DNA of 8,042 nucleotides from Octopus sinensis (lineage: Eukaryota), in NCBI RefSeq assembly GCF_006345805.1, contig NW_021828668.1, positions 1-8,042 of the forward strand, given 5' to 3'. Numbering within the stretch: position 1 is the first letter of the stretch; each line of letters opens with the position of its first letter. Shown piece by piece: positions 1-8,042 of this stretch. Made by a program: the position numbers and the translations under genes. Under the pieces are notes generated by a model, which ran no database searches, was not told the origin of the DNA, and was given only the letters and a program-made list of their open reading frames with translations.

Positions 1-269
1 ATCGCAGAGTATACACGCAGCAAGTTTAGATGGGCTGGACAAGCGCCCAGCTCACGATAATCGGTGGACCCACGCAGTTGTCGAGTGGTACCCGCGCGAG
101 CGGAAACGACCACGGAAGGCCTCCACGACGGTGGAGTTACGATTTCAGGAGGACGATTGGGATCACGTGGATGAGAAAGTCGCGATCCAGGAGAGGAGTG
201 GACAGCGTGCTGTGACCAGCGGTGTCAATGGACGCTGACGGACTGGTCAGTCAAGGTGATCAAGGTGAT
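1..269 (+). mobile_element. 3' end of an RTE-clade non-LTR retrotransposon (LINE); frameshifted ORF C-terminus plus short tandem tail; runs off the 5' edge of the window
   Basis: Joining frames gives KFRWAGQ (frame 1) / DNRWTHAVVEWYPRERKRP (frame 2, from 56) / GRPPRRWSYDFRRTIGITWMRK (frame 3) / EEWTACC (frame 1). This matches the RTE C-terminal pattern W-AGH...D.RW...EW.PR..KR..GRP..RW.D....W.....R..W. It ends in (TCAAGGTGA)x2 at 251-268, a short-repeat tail typical of RTE elements. Confidence 0.85.
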
Positions 270-854
270 ATATACACTCGCAACAGTAAAATTACGTGGT
301 CGCTGTTGCTGAAGGCAAGCCGTCTCTGATGCGACTAATTCTACAAGAATTTCAATAAATATTATCCACCTTCATCATAATTTTTATCTTCATTTAAAAA
401 ATATTTTTGCCCCTCTATCAAAGAGGTAAAGGATCCTGCTTTTCTTAACAATCAGCATTTCTTATATGATATTTTAAGCATCAACTGTTCTCTATGTTGC
501 TTCCTTGTCTTTCTATATTCTTTCTCAATTTTAGATGTTTTCTAGTACTGACTACATTACCTGCACCGATTCACTGCCGTTTTCGACAAGTCCGCGATGT
601 TGGTTAACATTGATAAAGGTTTCCTTTATATCTTTCCAATTATTTCCATTGCACTTACTTGCTTTTGTATCTACTAATTTCTTACACCGACTGATTAACT
701 CATCCATGTGGTTTTGTAGATTTGTGAGTCAAGTGCGAAGTTCTTGTCACTTGTCTTTTAGGGGGTCTCTTTCACTGGTCAAATGATTTGGCTATATATT
801 AGTTCTTTTTTTTAATTTCCTTCCTTGCGAACTTTCAATTAGTTTTCCACTATA

Positions 855-1016
855 GGCGCAGGAGTGGCTGTGTGGTAAGTAGCTTGCTTACCAACCACAT
901 GGTTCTGGGTTCAGTTCCACTGCGTGGCACCTTGGGCAAGTGTCATCTACTATAGCCTCGGGCCGACCAAAGCTTGTGATTGGATTTGGTAGACGGAAAC
1001 TGAAAGAAGCCTGTCG

Positions 1017-1053
<37 letters not shown>

Positions 1054-1293
1054 TTGTGTGTGTGTGCGTGTGTTTGTGTGTGTGCGTGTTGGCCCCCCCC
1101 AACATCGCTTGGCAACCGATGCTGGTGTGTTTATATTCCCGTAACTTAGTGGTTCGGCTAAAGAGACGGATAGAATAAGTACAAGGCTTACAAAGAATAA
1201 GTCCTGGGGTCGATTTGCTCGACTAAAGGCGGTGCTCCAGCAAGGCCGCAGTCAAAATGACTGAAACAAGTAAAAGAGAAAAAGAGTAAAGAG
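855..1293 (+). mobile_element. Full-length tRNA-derived SINE, family A, young copy
   Basis: Pol III A-box-like TGGCTGTGTGG (865-875) and B-box-like GGTTCAGTTCC (908-918). CORE-like CCTTGGGCAAGT follows the head. Internal (TA)n(TG)n at ~1017-1090. 3' end CTGAAACAAGTAAAAGAG..(GAGTAAA). Colinear and highly similar to 5379-5841. Confidence 0.92.
1017..1090. repeat. (TA)n(TG)n microsatellite internal to SINE A
   Basis: Read directly from the sequence. Confidence 0.95.
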
Positions 1294-1586
1294 TATCCAA
1301 TTACACTCACAAGGTTAGTAAAAAGACACTTGCTTAAAATGTCGCAATGTGGGATCGAAACTAGGCGGTTATGTTGGCAAATGAAATTCTATATTTCTCG
1401 GATATACCAGCGGTCATACATACGTACATATGTTCGTACATAATTAAGCACATAAATGCACACGTACACACATGCCTATCTATGGAGTTCTCGAAATGCA
1501 GTCCTCGAAAATTTTCTTTCAGCTTCTTTCCCACTGTTGTATAGATTAAGACTAGACTTGGGCTCTTGCACAATAACTGGGTTAAT

Positions 1587-1815
1587 ATATTTCTTTATTG
1601 CCCACAAGGGGGTAAACATAGAGGGGAAAAACAAGGACAGACAAACGGATTAAGTCGATTACATCGACCCCAGTGCGCAACTGGTACTTTATTTATCGAC
1701 CCCGAAAGGATGAAAGGCAAAGTCGACCTCGGCGGAATTTGAACTCACAACGTAACGACAGACGAAATACGGCTACGCATTTCGCCTGGCGTGCTAACGT
1801 TTCTGCCAGCTCGCC
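1587..1815 (-). mobile_element. tRNA-derived SINE, family B (tail variant 1)
   Basis: Reverse complement reads GGCGAGCTGGCAGAAACGTTAGCACGCCAGGCGAAATGC...GAGTTCAAATTCCGCCGAGGTCGACTTTGCCTTTCATCCTTTCGGGGTCGATAAA..GTACCAG..CTGGGGTCGATGTAATCGACT...CCTTGTGGGCAATAAAGAAATA. It has A/B-box-like motifs and is homologous to 5086-5304, 7698-7912 and 7945-8042. Confidence 0.9.
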
Positions 1816-2021
1816 AAAAATGTATCAACTTCAAAATGTAACGGGTGAATGTTTGCGTGGAAAAAAGGACGGTGACACGCTTTAAAAATGTATCTTTCCG
1901 TTTTTGTGTAGCAGACTTACCACAGAGCAATAAATCTCTGAAATATCCAAATAGGAAAAGATGACGCATACAAACTTGACTACGTACAAAGCTATTAAGA
2001 TACAGTAGTAGACGTAGATGC

Positions 2022-2081
2022 AGACATACACGCGTACGCATACACACGCACACACACGTACACACATGCACAAACACACAT
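2022..2081. repeat. Degenerate (CA)n microsatellite
   Basis: Read directly from the sequence. Confidence 0.85.
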
Positions 2082-2174
2082 AGGAATTATGAAGCGGAAA
2101 GAAATGGGCAGGTCAGAAAAAAGATACAGAAATTTGTGTGCGTTTTTGTAAAAACATTTGTCTATATATCGTGT

Positions 2175-2237
2175 TATATATGTATGTGTGTGTACATGTA
2201 TATGTGAGCGAAAGAAAGTGTATGTATATATATAGTA

Positions 2238-2313
<76 letters not shown>
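2175..2313. repeat. (TA)n microsatellite with a degenerate TATG/TG 5' part
   Basis: Pure (TA)n from ~2244 to 2313. Confidence 0.95.
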
Positions 2314-2316
<3 letters not shown>

Positions 2317-2444
2317 AGGTAGAAACTGATATCAGCCCGGGATGTATCGTTATCGGTAAATGTTTTTGATTTTCACTCTCGATAAGTTTATCCTCTTTTG
2401 GTGTCCCCAGCACTTGGCATCTTATTTAGGAGCCCTTAATTATA

Positions 2445-2480
2445 TTTCTACATGAATAATATTTTCTATATGAATAATAT
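2445..2480. repeat. 18-bp tandem duplication TTTCTA(C/T)ATGAATAATAT x2
   Basis: 2445-2462 and 2463-2480 differ at one base. Confidence 0.85.
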
Positions 2481-2572
2481 TTTGTCTAATGACAAATTCG
2501 TCCTTTGTGCTGGGCCACTGGTACTAATCTATATCATTACCCTTTTGAGTATATTCATATATATATATATCT

Positions 2573-2603
<31 letters not shown>

Positions 2604-2611
2604 TATAGAAA

Positions 2612-2664
2612 GGAGCTTCTACAGGATAGTACTGTTTCATCAAGGAAAATATTCAGGAGCTTCA
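2612..2664 (-). ncRNA. Decayed second hammerhead motif on the opposite strand
   Basis: Reverse complement is TGAAGCTC-CTGAATA-TTTTCCTTGAT-GAAA-CAG-TACTATC-CTG-TA-GAAGCTCC. It has the same layout, but core G8 is replaced by U and stems I and II are imperfect. Confidence 0.5.
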
Positions 2665-2710
2665 CTGAAGATTTCTCTTGAATGAAACAGACTAGGCTGT
2701 AGAAGCTCTT
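2655..2710 (+). ncRNA. Minimal type I hammerhead ribozyme motif, near-intact
   Basis: Stem I is AGGAGCTTC (2655-2663) / GAAGCTCTT (2702-2710). Core is CUGAAGA (2665-2671). Stem II is TTC/GAA with loop TCTT, closed by a U-U mismatch (2672-2683). GAAA lies at 2684-2687. Stem III is ACAG/CTGT around ACTAGG, a near-palindrome. The GUA triplet (2699-2701) predicts cleavage after 2701. Deviations: an extra A at 2664 and the U-U pair at 10.1/11.1. Confidence 0.7.
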
Positions 2711-2788
2711 CTATATAATAAATAATTTACTTGCTATGTATTGAGTACCTTACTTACTGTGGTTAACCCCGGATCAACCCGGGACCTA

Positions 2789-2855
2789 CATATATATATA
2801 TAATATATATTATATAGATATATTATATATATATAGATATATATATATATATATA
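2789..2855. repeat. Imperfect (TA)n microsatellite
   Basis: Read directly from the sequence. Confidence 0.92.
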
Positions 2856-2989
2856 CAATAATGAATTTATATTTAATATAGGATAAAATTTTTTCGAAAA
2901 AAAAATTCTATCAATGGCCACCATATTACAAAATACCTTTAAAGGTTAATTACGAACAACTTCATGTCATAAGTTGCCCTTAGTATAAG

Positions 2990-3007
2990 TATATATATAT
3001 ATGTTGT

Positions 3008-3050
<43 letters not shown>

Positions 3051-3054
3051 TGTG
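2990..3054. repeat. (TA)n(TG)n microsatellite
   Basis: Read directly from the sequence. Confidence 0.92.
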
Positions 3055-3125
3055 CTGGAGAAATGGTTGTTTGTAAACCTGTCATTATGGTTGTAACGAA
3101 CAGGAATAGAGTTCAGTTAATGTCA

Positions 3126-3500
3126 AAAGGGGAAGAAGACGTCGTGAGAGCAGTTAATAAGAGTAATGATATATAGATAGACAAGTAGATAGAAAGCTAC
3201 AGGGAGAGAAAGGGAGAGGATAGAATAAAAGAGGAAGGCGGAAGGGAGTCAGACAGTCAGAAACAGGCAGTAAAGCGTACAGTATGTGGAGGTGAAGTAG
3301 AGAGAGAGTTAAGGGATTCAGGGATAGTTAAGATAGACGAAGTTTGGATAAATGGCATGTTGCGAAAGAGACGGTTAGTCGCAGGTAAAAAAAAATATAA
3401 TGCGGATGGAGATAGAGAGGAAAAGAGGAGTAATTAGAGATAAGACAGAGTAATTAGAGATAAGACAGGATAAGTAAGAGGTTGTAGAGAAGTCAGTAGC
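3126..3500. repeat. Purine-rich (GA-rich) low-complexity tract containing a perfect 20-bp tandem duplication, GAGTAATTAGAGATAAGACA x2 (3428-3467)
   Basis: Strong A/G bias on the + strand; the duplication is read directly. Confidence 0.75.
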
Positions 3501-3507
3501 GAGACGT

Positions 3508-3943
3508 GGATCTTTTCGGTTTGAACGGCAGTTTTTAACATAATTTCTAGGTAACTTAAAAATGTTAAACTTCGTATACTGGTAGAATGTGTTTATAAAA
3601 CATCTTTTTCTCTTGGTTTTCTTGACAAAATTCTGTAGTTTGTAAGATATTTGTGGTTTTTTTTCTTCAATTTCTGCAATTTCAACCAATCACTGACGTC
3701 TGTTGAGGTAAAAAAACATTCTGTGCCGTATGAATATGTCCTTAGTTTAAGAAACAGATTTGGTTTATTTACATTTGTGAAGAAAAAAAAGATACCCTTC
3801 CCCTCACCCCTAACCCTAACCCTAACTAACCCTAACCCTAAAATAGATTGAAATGCAATAGATCGATAGAAGGGTTATAATTATGGGTGACAATTTCATA
3901 TGACACCGCTAGAAAAAAACTGCCGTTCAAACCGAAAAGATCC
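3508..3943. mobile_element. Non-autonomous DNA transposon (MITE-like), 436 bp, perfect 29-bp terminal inverted repeats; superfamily unassigned
   Basis: Left TIR GGATCTTTTCGGTTTGAACGGCAGTTTTT (3508-3536) is the exact reverse complement of AAAAACTGCCGTTCAAACCGAAAAGATCC (3915-3943). The interior is AT-rich and non-coding. No target-site duplication is visible. Confidence 0.88.
3795..3841 (-). repeat. Interstitial telomere-type repeat (TTAGGG)n inside the MITE
   Basis: Five perfect CCCTAA units (3808, 3814, 3820, 3830, 3836), one truncated CTAA, and variants CCCTTC and CCCTCA. Confidence 0.9.
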
Positions 3944-3956
3944 AAAATCTGTAATG

Positions 3957-4050
3957 CGGGTTCGGTACAATTGTCTAAAACCTTTCTATCAAGGTTGCAC
4001 TCCAGCATGGTCGCAGTCCAATGACTGAAATAAGTAAAGGAGTAAAGAAT
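3957..4050 (+). mobile_element. 3'-terminal fragment of a family-A SINE
   Basis: AAGGTTGCACTCCAGCATGGTCGCAGTCCAATGACTGAAATAAGTAAAGGAGTAAAGA matches the family-A 3' end AAGGCGGTGCTCCAGCATGGCCGCAG.CAAATGACTGAAACAAGTAAAAGAGTAAAGA. Confidence 0.85.
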
Positions 4051-4321
4051 TGGTTGCGGTGAAACTAAGACCTAAACAGGAAGCAGTGCGTTTTGAACAG
4101 TTATTGGAATACGTTTTGTCGAATCTAGTTTCGAAGAGACTAAGATAGGAATTGATTTTCAAATTCTTCATCTTTTATTTCGTCTTTAATTTAATTAAAA
4201 TAATCTTTCATGATTTCTATTAATTTTTCCATTTGTTTATTCATATTTATTTGTTGATTTGTTTATTTCTTTGTGGTTTTATAATTTTGCTATTCAGAAA
4301 GGGAAATGGTTATCTTCGGCT

Positions 4322-4331
4322 TTGTGTGTGT

Positions 4332-4376
<45 letters not shown>

Positions 4377-4748
4377 TGTGTTTGTGTGTATGTGTTGTGT
4401 GTGTGTGTGTGCGTAATTATTTGTGTATATGCGTGTAATTGTAAATACGTTTGCGACTGTAATTATGTGTGCGTGTGTGTGTGAGTCTGTGTGCGAGTGA
4501 GTGTGTTTGTATGTTTGTGTGTGTGTGTGTGTGTGCGCGTGTGTGTGTGTATGTGTGTGCGCATGAGTTTGTATGTTTGTGTTTTTGTGTGTGTGTGTGT
4601 GTGTGTGCGTAATTATTTGTGTATATGCGTGTAATTGTAAATATGTATGCGAGTGTAATTACGTGTGTGTGTGTTTGTGTATATGTGTGAGTGTGTGTGT
4701 GTGTGTTTGATTATTTATAGGTAGGTGTAAATGTGTGTGTGAGTGTGA
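4322..4748. repeat. Compound (TG)n microsatellite with an internal higher-order duplication
   Basis: Long TG-based tract in which a 55-bp interruption block recurs at 4411-4465 and 4607-4661. Confidence 0.92.
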
Positions 4749-4984
4749 CAGTATTTGGTGTGTAGGTGTATCTGTGGCTGCACGTGTAATTGAGTAAGAG
4801 AAAATGTATCTTTAAATCATTGTATTATTTGAATAATATGTTTGGGATATTGTGTCTGTGTGAATAGATGTTAGAATTCAAGGACAAAAAACATAACAAA
4901 AAACAAGACAAAAAGAATCAAATAAATGAGCGCAAAATAATTAATTTTACGATATAAAGAAGATAGCGAATCTTCAGTGTGTAA

Positions 4985-5080
4985 CTCGTGTTAGTGCGTC
5001 TTTGTGTAAAAATATTTCTGAGTGATTTGGTTTCAAATCTCGACAGGGTCAACCTAGCTTTTATTATTCCATTGTGGTCA
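4985..5080 (+). mobile_element. Possible heavily diverged family-B SINE fragment
   Basis: GGTTTCAAATCTCGACAGGGTCAACCTAGCTTTTATTATTCCATTGTGGTCA resembles GAGTTCAAATTCCGCCGAGGTCGACTTTGCCTTTCATCCTTTCGGGGTCGA. Upstream GTTAGTGCGTC resembles GTTAGCACGCC. Confidence 0.4.
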
Positions 5081-5085
5081 CTGCT

Positions 5086-5304
5086 ATTGGTTTCAGATTT
5101 CGGAACAAGGCCTAGAAATTTCTGGCGAGGAGATTAAATCGACATCATCGATCCCAACGTTCATCTGGTACTTATTTCATCGACCCTGGAGGGATGAAAC
5201 ACAAATGTTAGCGACGGCAGAATTTGAACTCATAACGTGGCGCTGAAGAAATGCTACCAAGCATTTTGTCCGCTGTGCTAACGATTCTGCCAAGTCGCCG
5301 CCTT
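5086..5304 (-). mobile_element. Family-B SINE (tail variant 2), moderately diverged
   Basis: Colinear with 1650-1815 (CATCGATCCCA..CTGGTACTTATTTCATCGACCC..GGATGAAA..GAATTTGAACTCA..GTGCTAACGATTCTGCCA..TCGCCGCCTT). The tail reverse complement is AATTTCTAGGCCTTGTTCCGAAATCTGAAACCAAT. Confidence 0.87.
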
Positions 5305-5330
5305 CCCTTTGTGGCTCTATTAAAACCAAT

Positions 5331-5577
5331 TAAGGTGGTGGATTGGAAGAATCGTTTGAACGGGGAACAAAATGCATAGGTGTAGGAGTGGCTGTGTGGT
5401 AAGTAGCTTGCTTACCAACCACATGGTTCCGGGTTCAGTCCTACTGTGTGGTACCTTGGGCAAGTGTCTTCTACTATAGCCTCGGGCCGACCAAAGACTT
5501 GTGAGTGAATTTGGCAGACAAAAACTGAAAGAAGCCCGTCGTATATATGTATATATATATATATATATATATAATAT

Positions 5578-5626
<49 letters not shown>

Positions 5627-5955
5627 TTGTGAGTCTGTGTTTGTCCCGCAACATCGCTTTGACAACGATCTGGTGTGTTTTACGGTCCCCGTATCTTAGC
5701 GGTTTGGCAAAAGAGACCGATAGAATAAGTACTAGGCTTCCAAAGAATAAATCCTGAGATCGATTTGCTCGACTAAAGGCGGTGCTCCAGCATGGCCGCA
5801 GCCAAATGACGGAAACAAGTAAAAGAGTAAAGAGTAAAGAGAGCAGTATTTACTCTGGCTCTTGAAGTCTGAGTTCAAATCCTGCCATGGTCAAATTTAA
5901 TATAATCGACTCAACCCCTCTCTTTGAATTTCTGAGTTTGTACTTAATTTAGCAG
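5331..5955 (+). mobile_element. Diverged family-B SINE split into 5331-5378 and 5842-~5955 by a family-A insertion; carries an internal deletion
   Basis: TAAGGTGGTGGATTGGAAGAATCGTT...AAAATGCAT | AGCAGTATTT...TCTGAGTTCAAATCCTGCCATGGTCAA rejoins into a family-B head. It then jumps to TAATCGACTCAACCCCTCTC..AATTTCTG..TTGT, the family-B 3' region. Confidence 0.75.
5379..5841 (+). mobile_element. Full-length family-A SINE, young copy
   Basis: Same head (GGAGTGGCTGTGTGGTAAGTAGCTTGCTTACCAACCACATGGTTC), body, internal (TA)n(TG)n (~5542-5643) and (GAGTAAA)n tail as 855-1293. Confidence 0.92.
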
Positions 5956-6525
5956 CAGGTTTCACCACTGTGTGACTTTTCACAGTACACCCAGAGTTCA
6001 CTGTTTTTTAAGTATGTGTACATTTGGTATGTTTTCAGACGGTTTATATTTTATCTCTTTTTTATTGTTTTTATTTTCATGATTTGTTTTTCTAATGTTG
6101 GTCTTGCTTGTAATGAAGCCATTTTATGATATCCAGAGTTTGTTTGTGTCGATTATGTGCTGTATTGATTTATGTTATATTCCTGTAAAAGAAACATGTA
6201 CGAGTTTTGTTGAATTCAGAGTGTCTACCTAAACAGCACGTTCAGTTTAAATGTGTTAGCGCCAGATTGTGTAACACAAAAATCTAAACGGTTTGAGTCC
6301 TAGATTGACATTCAAGTTTTCGTTTATGTACTTTTTATCAGGCCTGGACCACAAAATATTGTTGGTGTCGTTTTTGTTCTTAGACCTTTCATGAAAACCA
6401 TTGTTAATTTTCGTGTTGGCTGTATCATAAATCCAATCTTGAATGATAGTTGAAAGGTTTCGAGAGATTTTTCCTCTTAATATTTCGTTACAATTTTTCA
6501 GTCGTACTTTGGTTTTCATCGCTTT

Positions 6526-7211
6526 GGTCGTCCAGGCCTTCTACGTGGTACCCTGGACATATATCATACAGAATAGCTCCGAGTCGACCAATGCATTTTG
6601 AGGGAATTTGGCAGACGTTAACTGTACAGTAGCCCCTTGTAAATGTTCGTGTATGTATGTATGTATGTATGTATGTATGTATGTATGTATGTATGTATGT
6701 ATCTGTGTGTGTATGTATGCATTTATTATGCATGTATGTATGTGTGTCTGTATGTATGCATGAATGCATCTATGCATGTATTTATGTATGTGTGAGTATG
6801 TGTGTACGTGTATGTATGTATGTATGTGTACATGTATGTTTGTATGTGTGTATGTATGTATGTGTGTATGTATGAATGTATGTGTGTATATGTATATGTG
6901 TGTGTATATGTGTATGTATGTATATATGTATGTATGTATGTATGTATGTGTCTATGTGTGTCTCTGTGTGTATGTCTGTATGTATGTGTGTTTTGTATGC
7001 CTCTTTGGGTTTGTATTTCCTCTCTTCACAACCAGTGTTGGTTCATTTATGTTCACATCCTTAGCGGCCGCCTGAAGAAACGAAGCCGTTAAAATAGGTC
7101 CCAGCCTTAAACATAACTTCTGGGATCGATTTACTCTCTTAAACCCTCCAACATTGTTTCCCCATCATGGCCGCTGACAAATAACTGAAACAAGTAAAAG
7201 AATAACAGAAT
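6526..7211 (+). mobile_element. Old, diverged family-A SINE lacking a recognisable 5' head, with a greatly expanded internal microsatellite
   Basis: 6526-6645 aligns to the family-A 5' body (CGTGGTACCCTGGACA..ATAGCTCCGAGTCGACCAATGC..TGAGGGAATTTGGCAGACG..AACTG). ~7025-7211 aligns to the 3' half (ACAACC..CTTAGCGG..CTGGGATCGATTT..CATGGCCGC..ACTGAAACAAGTAAAAGA). Confidence 0.8.
6649..6990. repeat. (TATG)n/(TG)n compound microsatellite inside the old SINE A
   Basis: Pure (TATG)n at ~6652-6702, then degenerate. Confidence 0.95.
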
Positions 7212-7611
7212 ATACGAATAATAGAATAGCAGTAGTTTTGGGCTCTGACTTATTGCTATAGGGTAATATAATAGATGTTTTCTATTTTGAAATGGCGTGG
7301 TTGATATTCTTAGTATTAGAGCTGATATTTTTACAGGAGTGTGTTATGTTATTGGAATCTTTTTCTGGTAATCAATCCATACTATACTGAGTGATTATTT
7401 TCTTTTAATATTCTTTTATTTCTTTCGTCTTTTAGCTCTGTTTAATAAATGCTCACTTTACAAATAGCTGCCCTTTTCATCCCCATATCCCCTTCTGATA
7501 CCATTTCTGTATTTCTCTTAAGATATTATTATCCTCCAGATGAGAAACCAACCTGCTGGAGAGTATTCATGTCAATTGGTAAACAAGCTATCACTCTGTA
7601 ATTCTAGAAGG

Positions 7612-7612
<1 letters not shown>

Positions 7613-7698
<86 letters not shown>
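7613..7698. repeat. (TTA)n trinucleotide microsatellite
   Basis: Read directly; one 1-nt slip near 7654. Confidence 0.97.
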
Positions 7699-7699
<1 letters not shown>

Positions 7700-7912
7700 G
7701 GCGAGCTGGCATAATCGTTAGCACGCCGGGCAAAATCCTTAGGGTATTTCATCCGTCTTTACGTTCTGGGTTCAAATGCCGCCGAGGTCGATTTATCTTT
7801 CATCTTTTCGGGATCGATAAAATAAGTACCAGTGAAACACTGGTGGGGGGGGGGCATGTAACCGACTCATCTCCACTTCCCACCGAGCTACCGTTTTGGC
7901 ACAAAATTGAAA
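7698..7912 (+). mobile_element. Family-B SINE (tail variant 2), followed by an (ATA)/(TTA) tract
   Basis: A-box-like TGGCATAATCG (7707-7717), B-box-like GGTTCAAATGC (7769-7779), body GAGGTCGA..TTTCATC.TTTCGGG.TCGATAAAATAAGTACCAG, and tail ..GGCACAAAATTGAAA. Confidence 0.88.
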
Positions 7913-7944
7913 TAATAATAAAAACTATTATTATTATTACTATT

Positions 7945-8042
7945 AATGCGGCAAGCTGGCAGAATTGTTAGCTCGCCGGGTGAAATACTTTAGGTTATTT
8001 CGTCCTCTTTATGTTCTGAGTTCAAATTCCGCCGAGGTCGAC
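7945..8042 (+). mobile_element. 5' part of another family-B SINE, truncated by the window edge
   Basis: GCGGCAAGCTGGCAGAATTGTTAGCTCGCCGGGTGAAAT...CTGAGTTCAAATTCCGCCGAGGTCGAC. Confidence 0.88.

Follow-up and report, generated by a model that had tools for sequence, protein, structure and literature searches.

A hammerhead-like hairpin in the Octopus sinensis genome is one of hundreds of head-to-head repeat pairs that probably arose by Penelope-type integration

We analyzed a stretch of 8,042 nucleotides from Octopus sinensis (contig NW_021828668.1, positions 1 to 8,042, assembly GCF_006345805.1), hereafter the window, in which an imperfect palindrome with a hammerhead-like ribozyme module on each strand had been predicted from the letters alone. 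The inverted repeat is as that original prediction described it: two arms of 60 nt each (2597-2656 and 2665-2724) are 72% complementary and are separated by a spacer of 8 nt, GAGCTTCA (2657-2664). The palindrome belongs to a set of at least 529 head-to-head pairs, each formed by the last ~70 nt of a repeat family, and was probably made in one integration event of the type known from Penelope-like elements (PLEs). The family is a non-coding, non-autonomous, PLE-type element, not a PLE proper, and the tight pair is an integration by-product rather than a designed two-way ribozyme switch.

The evidence comes mainly from the recurrence of the arrangement in the O. sinensis genome (2.7 Gb). A search with the right arm (E≤0.001) returned 56 matches; 40 of 164 candidates were scored, and 30 loci were kept for the analysis of pair layout. 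Thirteen of these loci were tight pairs, six had a partner 100-830 bp away and 11 were lone within 1.5 kb. All 19 paired loci showed the same -/+ order, with the inner (5') ends facing each other. The exact tight-pair pattern, AGAGAAATCTTCA and TGAAGATTTCTCT separated by 0 to 40 nt, was present in at least 529 places, versus none for the reversed control. The commonest junction, a perfect palindrome centred on AAGCTT, accounted for 19 of the first 50 places listed, and the next commonest, one base shorter, for nine of them; the others differed by a few bases or carried short fillers. Arms with a longer upstream flank numbered 1,540, and among the first 100 such places listed the neighbours within 11 kb were oriented (-,+) in 29 cases, (+,-) in one, (+,+) in two and (-,-) in none. 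The inner distance of these longer pairs ranged from ~100 bp to 10 kb. Related subfamilies contributed 223 further arms and 960 unit matches. Near-identical contigs were found in the sequencing runs of four other organisms by comparison with L017:1300-1680, and show the presence of the family only; in one contig from another organism's run the arm start is joined to an inverted arm. A survey of genomic homologues had been proposed as one check on the palindrome, and it demonstrates that both the inverted arrangement and the short spacer recur.

One locus departs from the simple pair. At L011:1260-1680 there is a nested palindrome of a dimer, in which each side has two arms with the first 41 nt of the tail (described below) between them. 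Its dimer junction, ACTGTG/AGCTTCC, was seen nowhere else in the genome, and looks like a template jump from the 5' end of one RNA into the tail of a second RNA.

The architecture of the family was read from its longer copies. These comprise, in order, a conserved upstream region of ~190 nt with the sequence TATAAAT, a spacer of 22 nt, the 51-nt hammerhead-like motif, a linker of 16 nt that ends AATAAAT, a tail of 68 nt that ends GGGACCTAC, and an (AT)n microsatellite. Flank alignments showed two end points for family copies, one after the tail and the other exactly at AATAAAT, with (AT)n adjoining both. Exactly one tail was present in 33 of 34 pairs and no pair was without one; the sole pair with a tail at both ends is L079 (G000:C1:94130616-94133650). 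Sequence constraint was assessed in eight hand-picked subfamily groups, which together hold 30 sequences (1 to 6 per group) drawn only from loci with the anchor pattern. The TATAAAT box is kept (as CATAAAT in one subfamily), and the length of the 22-nt spacer is constant in all eight groups. The arm start lies 29 nt past the first T of TATAAAT, and the arms of tight pairs, together with some unpaired copies (L025, L005), begin at or beside AGCTTCC. The tight pairs are without the upstream TATA-like box of the longer copies. In the arms of loci L001-L030, the run of bases just 3' of stem I of the motif reads either GAAGCTCTTC or GAAGCTCCTTC (the C/CC variant). In many pairs the two arms carry different forms of this indel, neither form being tied to the tailed end; such a difference argues against a single palindromic master.

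The original prediction had proposed a look in longer family members for linked open reading frames (ORFs) for a Penelope reverse transcriptase (RT) and a GIY-YIG endonuclease (EN). None came to light: a Pfam scan of 24 ORFs from two long copies (L031, L032) found no RT, GIY-YIG or transposase-like domain, and the arm, when sought in 20 GIY-YIG loci, gave only (AT)n matches. The interiors of the long copies are mostly TG/TA microsatellite. The long upstream "homology" among loci is largely of the same nature and was not used to define a full-length element.

Coding PLEs are present in the same genome. In a GIY-YIG search, 147 of the 150 candidates scored (of 5,029 candidates) were matches, with ORFs of up to 883 aa. 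We examined the 3' flank of one such coding PLE family with RT and GIY-YIG domains, termed family P (ORF at L114:4245-6569, - strand; related loci L116-L125). About 540 nt past the stop codon, family P carries a minimal hammerhead-like motif composed of CTGAAGA, TTGCA..TGCAT, GAAA, GTAC and TA/GTTCA. Exact matches to this pattern number 588, and the first 100 of them listed include 11 close (-,+) pairs 75-135 bp apart, six of them at 119-120 bp. The core context CUGAAGA-UU...AU-GAAA is that of the window family, with G-C where the window family has U-A and with the same U·U at positions 10.1/11.1; helix III consists of 1 bp capped by the palindrome GUAC. Family P is flanked by (TA)n, and only one of its ends bears a tail, of ~30 nt. 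Its discrete 5' end, AGTCAAAA, lies 32 nt past the TATTTAAG box and 43 nt before CUGA. The two families thus share the distance of the 5' end from the TATA-like box and not its distance from the edge of the hammerhead motif, which fits a transcription start when judged against the usual spacing between a TATA box and its start. As read from the genomic copies, AGCUUC is probably the transcription start of a pseudo-long terminal repeat (pseudo-LTR)-like promoter of the window family. The proposed link of the palindrome to PLEs, with arms resembling inverted pseudo-LTRs, is upheld by this PLE-type layout, which recurs genome-wide.

Canonical hammerheads also occur outside the window in this genome. 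Of ~266,000 candidates, 74 were scored with the Rfam Hammerhead_1 model (RF00163), and eight exceeded the cut-off (among loci L035-L044). These repeats read GTACCTGAAGAGACCC...GGGTCGAAACATGTGTCGTAC and then AATAAA, with (TA)n after that in some copies. A Pfam scan of ORFs at ten canonical-hammerhead loci detected no RT/EN ORF within 1.5 kb.

We propose that the pairs formed as follows. A Penelope-like reverse transcriptase/endonuclease would cut a (TA)n site and bind a short family RNA starting at AGCUUC, the product of the promoter in the pseudo-LTR-like region, and each end of the cut site would then serve as a starting point for cDNA synthesis. Each arm would represent a cDNA that reached the 5' end of the RNA, and AGCT, self-complementary over its 4 nt, would allow the two cDNA ends to be joined. 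The tail-less end would mark a second place, within the RNA, at which reverse transcription began, namely an AU-rich run similar to the (TA)n target. The restriction to one tail may arise when a (TA)n end anneals to the AU-rich run before AAUAAAU and primes the tail-less end; alternatively, it may arise from a snap-back or template switch of a single cDNA. Twin priming by LINE-1 offers a comparison: there, cDNA synthesis on RNA is primed at each end of a staggered break, and joining by microhomology leaves an inverted 5' part. LINE-1 twin priming involves one RNA and yields an inversion with an internal deletion, whereas in the window family the two arms stop at the same RNA 5' end and the pair is bounded on either side by a 3' end of the element.

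Several points weigh against this account. The transcription start is deduced from genomic 5' ends and the spacing of the box, and membership among the PLEs rests on architecture, the RT/EN ORF having not been found in the family (24 ORFs, 20 GIY-YIG loci). Target-site duplications are unreadable within (TA)n. The strict one-tail rule is unlike the outcome of two independent primings with free choice of the start site, and the snap-back or template-switch route from a single cDNA may apply instead. Parts of the "homology" among long copies are low-complexity, the interiors of these copies being largely TG/TA microsatellite. Finally, the 3' module is only marginally similar to the canonical-hammerhead repeat family of this genome: in two of six comparisons the observed score was reached by 0-1 of 500 shuffles, and in another two it was no better than shuffles. 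The apparent upstream similarity between these two families is low-complexity, and homology of the 3' module to the canonical-hammerhead family was not retained as a line of evidence.

Other origins of the pairs were considered against integration from a short RNA. If the family were a DNA transposon, that is, a miniature inverted-repeat transposable element (MITE) or foldback element, then the arms would be terminal inverted repeats, the tight palindrome an internal deletion product and the hammerhead likeness incidental. Such an element would explain why inward-facing arms lie at the ends of units of 0.13-10 kb, why no coding capacity was found in an interior of simple tandem repeats, and why the target is AT-rich; sub-threshold Rfam hairpin matches to MITE-derived plant microRNA (miRNA) families point the same way. 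We nevertheless consider a DNA transposon quite unlikely, since the ends are unequal (33 of 34 pairs carry the ~66-68-nt tail at a single end), and one arm of a pair frequently has a different C/CC variant beside stem I from the other. Moreover, unpaired copies have the same discrete 5' end, the same architecture is found in family P, which encodes RT and GIY-YIG domains, and no transposase-like domain appeared among the 24 ORFs of the two long copies. The single rearrangement or deletion between two inverted pseudo-LTRs, which had been offered as an equal alternative for this locus, finds a parallel in the longer pairs with intervening sequence, yet at least 529 tight pairs with one commonest junction refute it, and the contig from another organism's run in which the arm is joined to an inverted arm at the arm start also speaks against it; the chance that it applies is negligible.

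It is also very unlikely that the twin hairpin is a functional unit, whether a precursor of small RNAs, a double-stranded RNA (dsRNA) edited by ADAR, or, as originally proposed, a ribozyme active only in transcripts that start in the loop. The great stability of the hairpin and the hundreds of near-perfect copies would be expected of such a unit, whereas the variation of junctions between copies and the lack of a TATA-like box in tight pairs would not. The copies also decay (the window arms are 72% complementary and are 85-89% identical to the subfamily unit), and no Rfam miRNA family reached its gathering score. The original prediction had raised the idea of a minimal element able to yield a ribozyme from either strand, with the alternative folds acting as a regulated switch. 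We abandoned this idea on the grounds that, besides the variable junctions and the missing box, the ends are unequal, inner distances extend from ~100 bp to 10 kb and the cores are damaged. Integration of a PLE type stands as the preferred origin of the pairs.

The hammerhead-like motif of the right arm (2656-2709, + strand), identified from the sequence and from fold energies, is arranged like a type I hammerhead. Stem I has GGAGCTTC (2656-2663) as its 5' strand, which is followed by an extra A (2664), between stem I and C3, that is missing from better-preserved family copies. Next come the core CUGAAGA (CTGAAGA, 2665-2671), the stem-loop II TTTC-TCTT-GAAT (2672-2683) and GAAA (2684-2687). 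Stem III is formed by ACAG and CTGT (2687-2690 with 2697-2700) around the loop ACTAGG (2691-2696), and TA/GAAGCTCT begins at 2700, so placed that H17 is A2701, the predicted cleavage falls between 2701 and 2702, and the 3' strand of stem I is GAAGCTCT (2702-2709). All core nucleotides are present (C3 U4 G5 A6 N7 G8 A9, G12 A13 A14, A15.1-U16.1 and H17), but A2664 is inserted before C3; an identical core is found in well-preserved copies such as L017:1501-1551. Three helices surround the core: a stem I of 6 bp (8 in the window copy), a stem III of 4 bp, and a stem II with only three Watson-Crick pairs. The pairs of stem II are U-A, U-A and C-G, closed by a U·U in place of G10.1-C11.1. This U·U was found at 10.1/11.1 in every subfamily examined as well as in family P.

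On the - strand, the left arm reads CTGAATA at 2656-2650, the predicted decay of the core to CUGAAUA, in which G8 is replaced by U; this core is not intact. The further proposal that the two motifs share their stem I 5' strands was correct for the self-complementary AGCT only, as the - strand reads TGAAGCTC ahead of CTGAATA and leaves its stem I without a proper 5' strand beyond AGCU. An Rfam scan for hammerheads gave no match in the whole window at E≤1, nor at E≤10 in 2590-2730 or in the better-preserved L011:1300-1720. The identification of the right arm as a ribozyme thus holds for the core nucleotides and the three helices, and is weakened by the absence of an Rfam match, the U·U in stem II and the extra A2664. 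Both window motifs are, judging by their sequences, probably inactive, one having the G8 to U change in its core and the other an inserted base, and self-cleavage of the window copy appears highly doubtful.

Conservation of the motif was assessed across the eight groups. Of the 51 columns of the motif, five vary: one is N7, three belong to loop 2 and one belongs to loop 3. The 38 core and stem columns are all invariant (hypergeometric p ~5.5e-4), versus 14 variable columns in the 22 nt directly upstream of the motif. With core and stems invariant and the U·U core recurring in family P, we treat the motif as a real hammerhead derivative and a conserved part of the 3' module, whose activity is uncertain from sequence comparison. 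The thermodynamic model is unfavourable to self-cleavage of the family motif. In a well-preserved arm, the modelled hammerhead fold lies 5.6 kcal/mol above the minimum free energy (MFE), with an ensemble probability of 1.4e-5; the corresponding values for a canonical hammerhead of the same genome are 1.6 kcal/mol and 0.019. A competing AAGA/UCUU helix in the MFE prediction was rejected as a conserved structure because it is absent from subfamilies B to E. On these models, the most that can be expected of the family motif is weak or protein-assisted ribozyme activity.

We lean toward the view that the family version does self-cleave, possibly only with the help of a protein. It is somewhat less probable, though a serious alternative, that conservation of the arm has a different cause, for example recognition by the reverse transcriptase, a promoter-proximal function or RNA stability; this alternative concerns the ribozyme and not the architecture of the pairs. 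It would account for the failure of the Rfam hammerhead model to match any tested copy when it finds eight hammerheads elsewhere in the genome, and for the 5.6 versus 1.6 kcal/mol by which the well-preserved arm and the canonical hammerhead exceed the MFE. It is further favoured by the U·U that substitutes for G10.1-C11.1, a pair listed as highly conserved in PLE hammerheads in the accessible part of Cervera and de la Pena (2014, PMC4209133), and by the normal insertion of hammerhead mutants in vitro (Frangieh et al. 2024, PMC11167929). Against it, the invariance of 0/38 core or stem columns contrasts with the 14/22 that vary upstream, and family P, a PLE unrelated in sequence, keeps the core context and the U·U with a covarying stem II (G-C for U-A). 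In addition, a palindrome lies in loop 3 (CUAG; ACUAGU in subfamily A2), a feature also of PLE hammerheads that act as dimers.

The predicted folding of the window copy follows from its palindromic structure. The 128-nt RNA folds into a single hairpin of -57.7 kcal/mol (z = -10.2), a stability equalled by none of 200 shuffles. The hammerhead fold of the right arm alone has an energy of -8.3 kcal/mol, compared with -57.7 kcal/mol for the long hairpin and with an MFE of -13.9 kcal/mol for that arm. The sequence AGGAGCTTC is present twice (2611-2619 and 2655-2663), and the hammerhead fold and the long hairpin are mutually exclusive in the folding model, both as originally proposed. Any transcript across the locus would, by the same model, be locked as one long hairpin, in keeping with the suggestion that read-through would sequester the motif. 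The proposed comparison of a long with a short RNA gave the expected stable hairpin for the former, whereas the MFE structure of the short RNA 2650-2720 (-15.7 kcal/mol, z = -0.97; 33 of 200 shuffles at least as stable) did not adopt the hammerhead. Rfam matches of 2590-2730 to miRNA precursor families (MIR537, MIR5649 and others) reached at best 30.7 bits, against a gathering threshold of 100, and were rejected as generic hairpin or microsatellite matches far under the threshold.

The whole insert in the window spans 2597-2789 and sits within a (TA)n microsatellite. The part of the microsatellite to the left (2556-2599, no strand; recognized from the sequence and from repeat families D1 and I2-I14) is likely the target site, its border with the element being ambiguous where both are AT-rich. 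The left arm (2597-2656, - strand) is an inverted, tail-less copy of the family 3'-terminal module, as seen in repeat I1 and in the alignment with other arms. The junction GAGCTTCA has no strand and holds the self-complementary AGCT that forms the centre of the commonest junction of the family. Beyond the right-arm motif lie, on the + strand, the linker (2710-2723), whose last bases AATAAAT (2717-2723) mark the exact point at which tail-less family copies stop, and the tail of 66 nt (2724-2789), which is present at this end of the insert only and terminates in GGGACCTAC; the tail was delimited by identity to the A2 unit and by comparison of pairs. The (AT)n microsatellite to the right (2790-2855, no strand) was detected by Tandem Repeats Finder with a period of 2. 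The window copy was assigned to subfamily A2, which has the loop TACTAGTC. The stretch 2658-2853, with the right arm and the tail, is 89% identical to the A2 unit of L027, and the left arm is 85% identical to it. The copy is old, with ~11-15% divergence, and is a decayed insertion product without a promoter at an ordinary locus.

Two further observations concern the remainder of the window. A 12-nt near-repeat links ATCAGCCCGGGA (2331-2342), directly after another (TA)n run (2221-2313), with ATCAACCCGGGA (2773-2784) within the tail; the copy at 2331-2342 might represent the end of another tail fragment or might be due to chance. Sub-threshold Rfam matches named "mir-297" and "mir-1277" (30-49 bits, against thresholds of 81-90) occur at 6649-6991, 2015-2075 and 1413-1481. 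Those at 6649-6991 fall on a (TGTA)n microsatellite and the other two lie in GT/GC-rich stretches outside the listed tandem repeats; none of these matches is a miRNA gene.

Much of the family architecture has been described for PLEs. In the portion available to us, Craig, Yushenova, Rodriguez and Arkhipova (2021, PMC8557442) report that PLE insertions are strongly 5'-truncated, often form partial tandems, often have an adjacent inverted 5'-truncated copy, carry a tail of 30-40 bp at one end, and are biased to (TA)n. The window family resembles the insertions described there in its 5' truncation, adjacent inverted copy, occasional partial tandem (L011), one-end tail, (TA)n target and hammerhead-type motif near the 3' end. 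It differs from them in four respects: a search for RT/GIY-YIG ORFs found none, its tail is longer at 66-68 nt, G10.1-C11.1 is missing, and the very short twin form occurs extremely often, with one junction more frequent than any other.

The protein of PAc (Poseidon of Anolis), a lizard PLE, cleaves and extends both target strands in vitro (Frangieh et al. 2024, PMC11167929). Reverse transcription of PAc begins at two internal sites, its tail being the stretch between them, and a hammerhead just upstream of the start sites is dispensable for insertion and cleaves only with protein (PMC11167929). As read from genomic copies alone, the window family appears to share the AT-rich target, the extension of two strands, two start sites that bracket the tail and a hammerhead 5' of them. 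PAc is a coding element of a vertebrate, tested at the bench, and its start is non-homologous to the target, whereas the tail-less start of the window family is AU-rich and resembles the target. As read from the genomic copies, all PLE features of these two accounts (PMC11167929 and the accessible part of PMC8557442) are represented in the window family except the coding region.

Similarities extend to other hammerhead repeats. In the consulted sections of Cervera and de la Pena (2014, PMC4209133), minimal type I PLE hammerheads have the type I topology, terminal-repeat position, palindromic loop 3, low predicted stability as monomers and thousands of copies, all of which are seen here. The hammerheads covered in those sections have G10.1-C11.1, a helix II of 6-8 bp and a helix III of 1-2 bp, whereas the window motif has U·U plus 3 bp, a helix III of 4 bp and an 8-nt loop. 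The window family is also like the non-LTR retrozymes of animals, non-autonomous hammerhead repeats thought to derive from PLE pseudo-LTRs according to the available text of Cervera and de la Pena (2020, PMC7229834) and of Li, Clavereau and Pollet (2026, 10.64898/2026.07.22.740005). Retrozymes, as presented there, form head-to-tail tandem arrays that give circular RNAs; the window family is mainly head-to-head (29 (-,+) versus 2 (+,+) in the first 100 places listed), with a tandem junction at one locus.

A 2026 repeat annotation of Octopus lists PLEs, and the word "hammerhead" is absent from the part of it that was accessible (PMC13282606); our literature search found no paper that combines hammerhead, head-to-head arrangement and Penelope. 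The architecture described for PLEs (PMC8557442) and the annotation of PLEs in octopus genomes, as far as the accessible text of PMC13282606 goes, are thus already known. The size of the tight twin class, the single commonest junction at the predicted transcription start, the near-absolute one-tail rule and the PLE hammerhead with U·U in two families may be new within the literature searched. A bolder interpretation, which we hold to be speculative and rather improbable, is that the twin hairpins preserve, across the genome, a fossil record of how Penelope-type elements integrate in vivo. Each pair would then hold two full-length cDNAs of a short pseudo-LTR RNA defined by its promoter, primed on both strands of the target and connected at a palindrome of 4 nt; the junctions would map the transcription start and the ends would map the two starts of reverse transcription. 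The U10.1·U11.1 hammerhead, retained in two unrelated PLE-type families of cephalopods, would be working with the assistance of a protein, and the many near-perfect hairpins of ~130 bp or more would be a notable source of dsRNA in a lineage known for heavy RNA editing.

The window locus itself is of little importance, and the interest lies in the family, for researchers who study PLEs. The U·U that replaces G10.1-C11.1 in two families is a simple case of drift in the hammerhead motif, and standard hammerhead searches, which missed it here, probably undercount such motifs. The one-tail rule, followed by 33 of 34 pairs, limits the models of how the two ends form. The position of the commonest junction at the start predicted from the TATA-like box, likewise in a coding PLE of this genome, gives in vivo support for two-strand priming, so far seen only in vitro for one lizard element.

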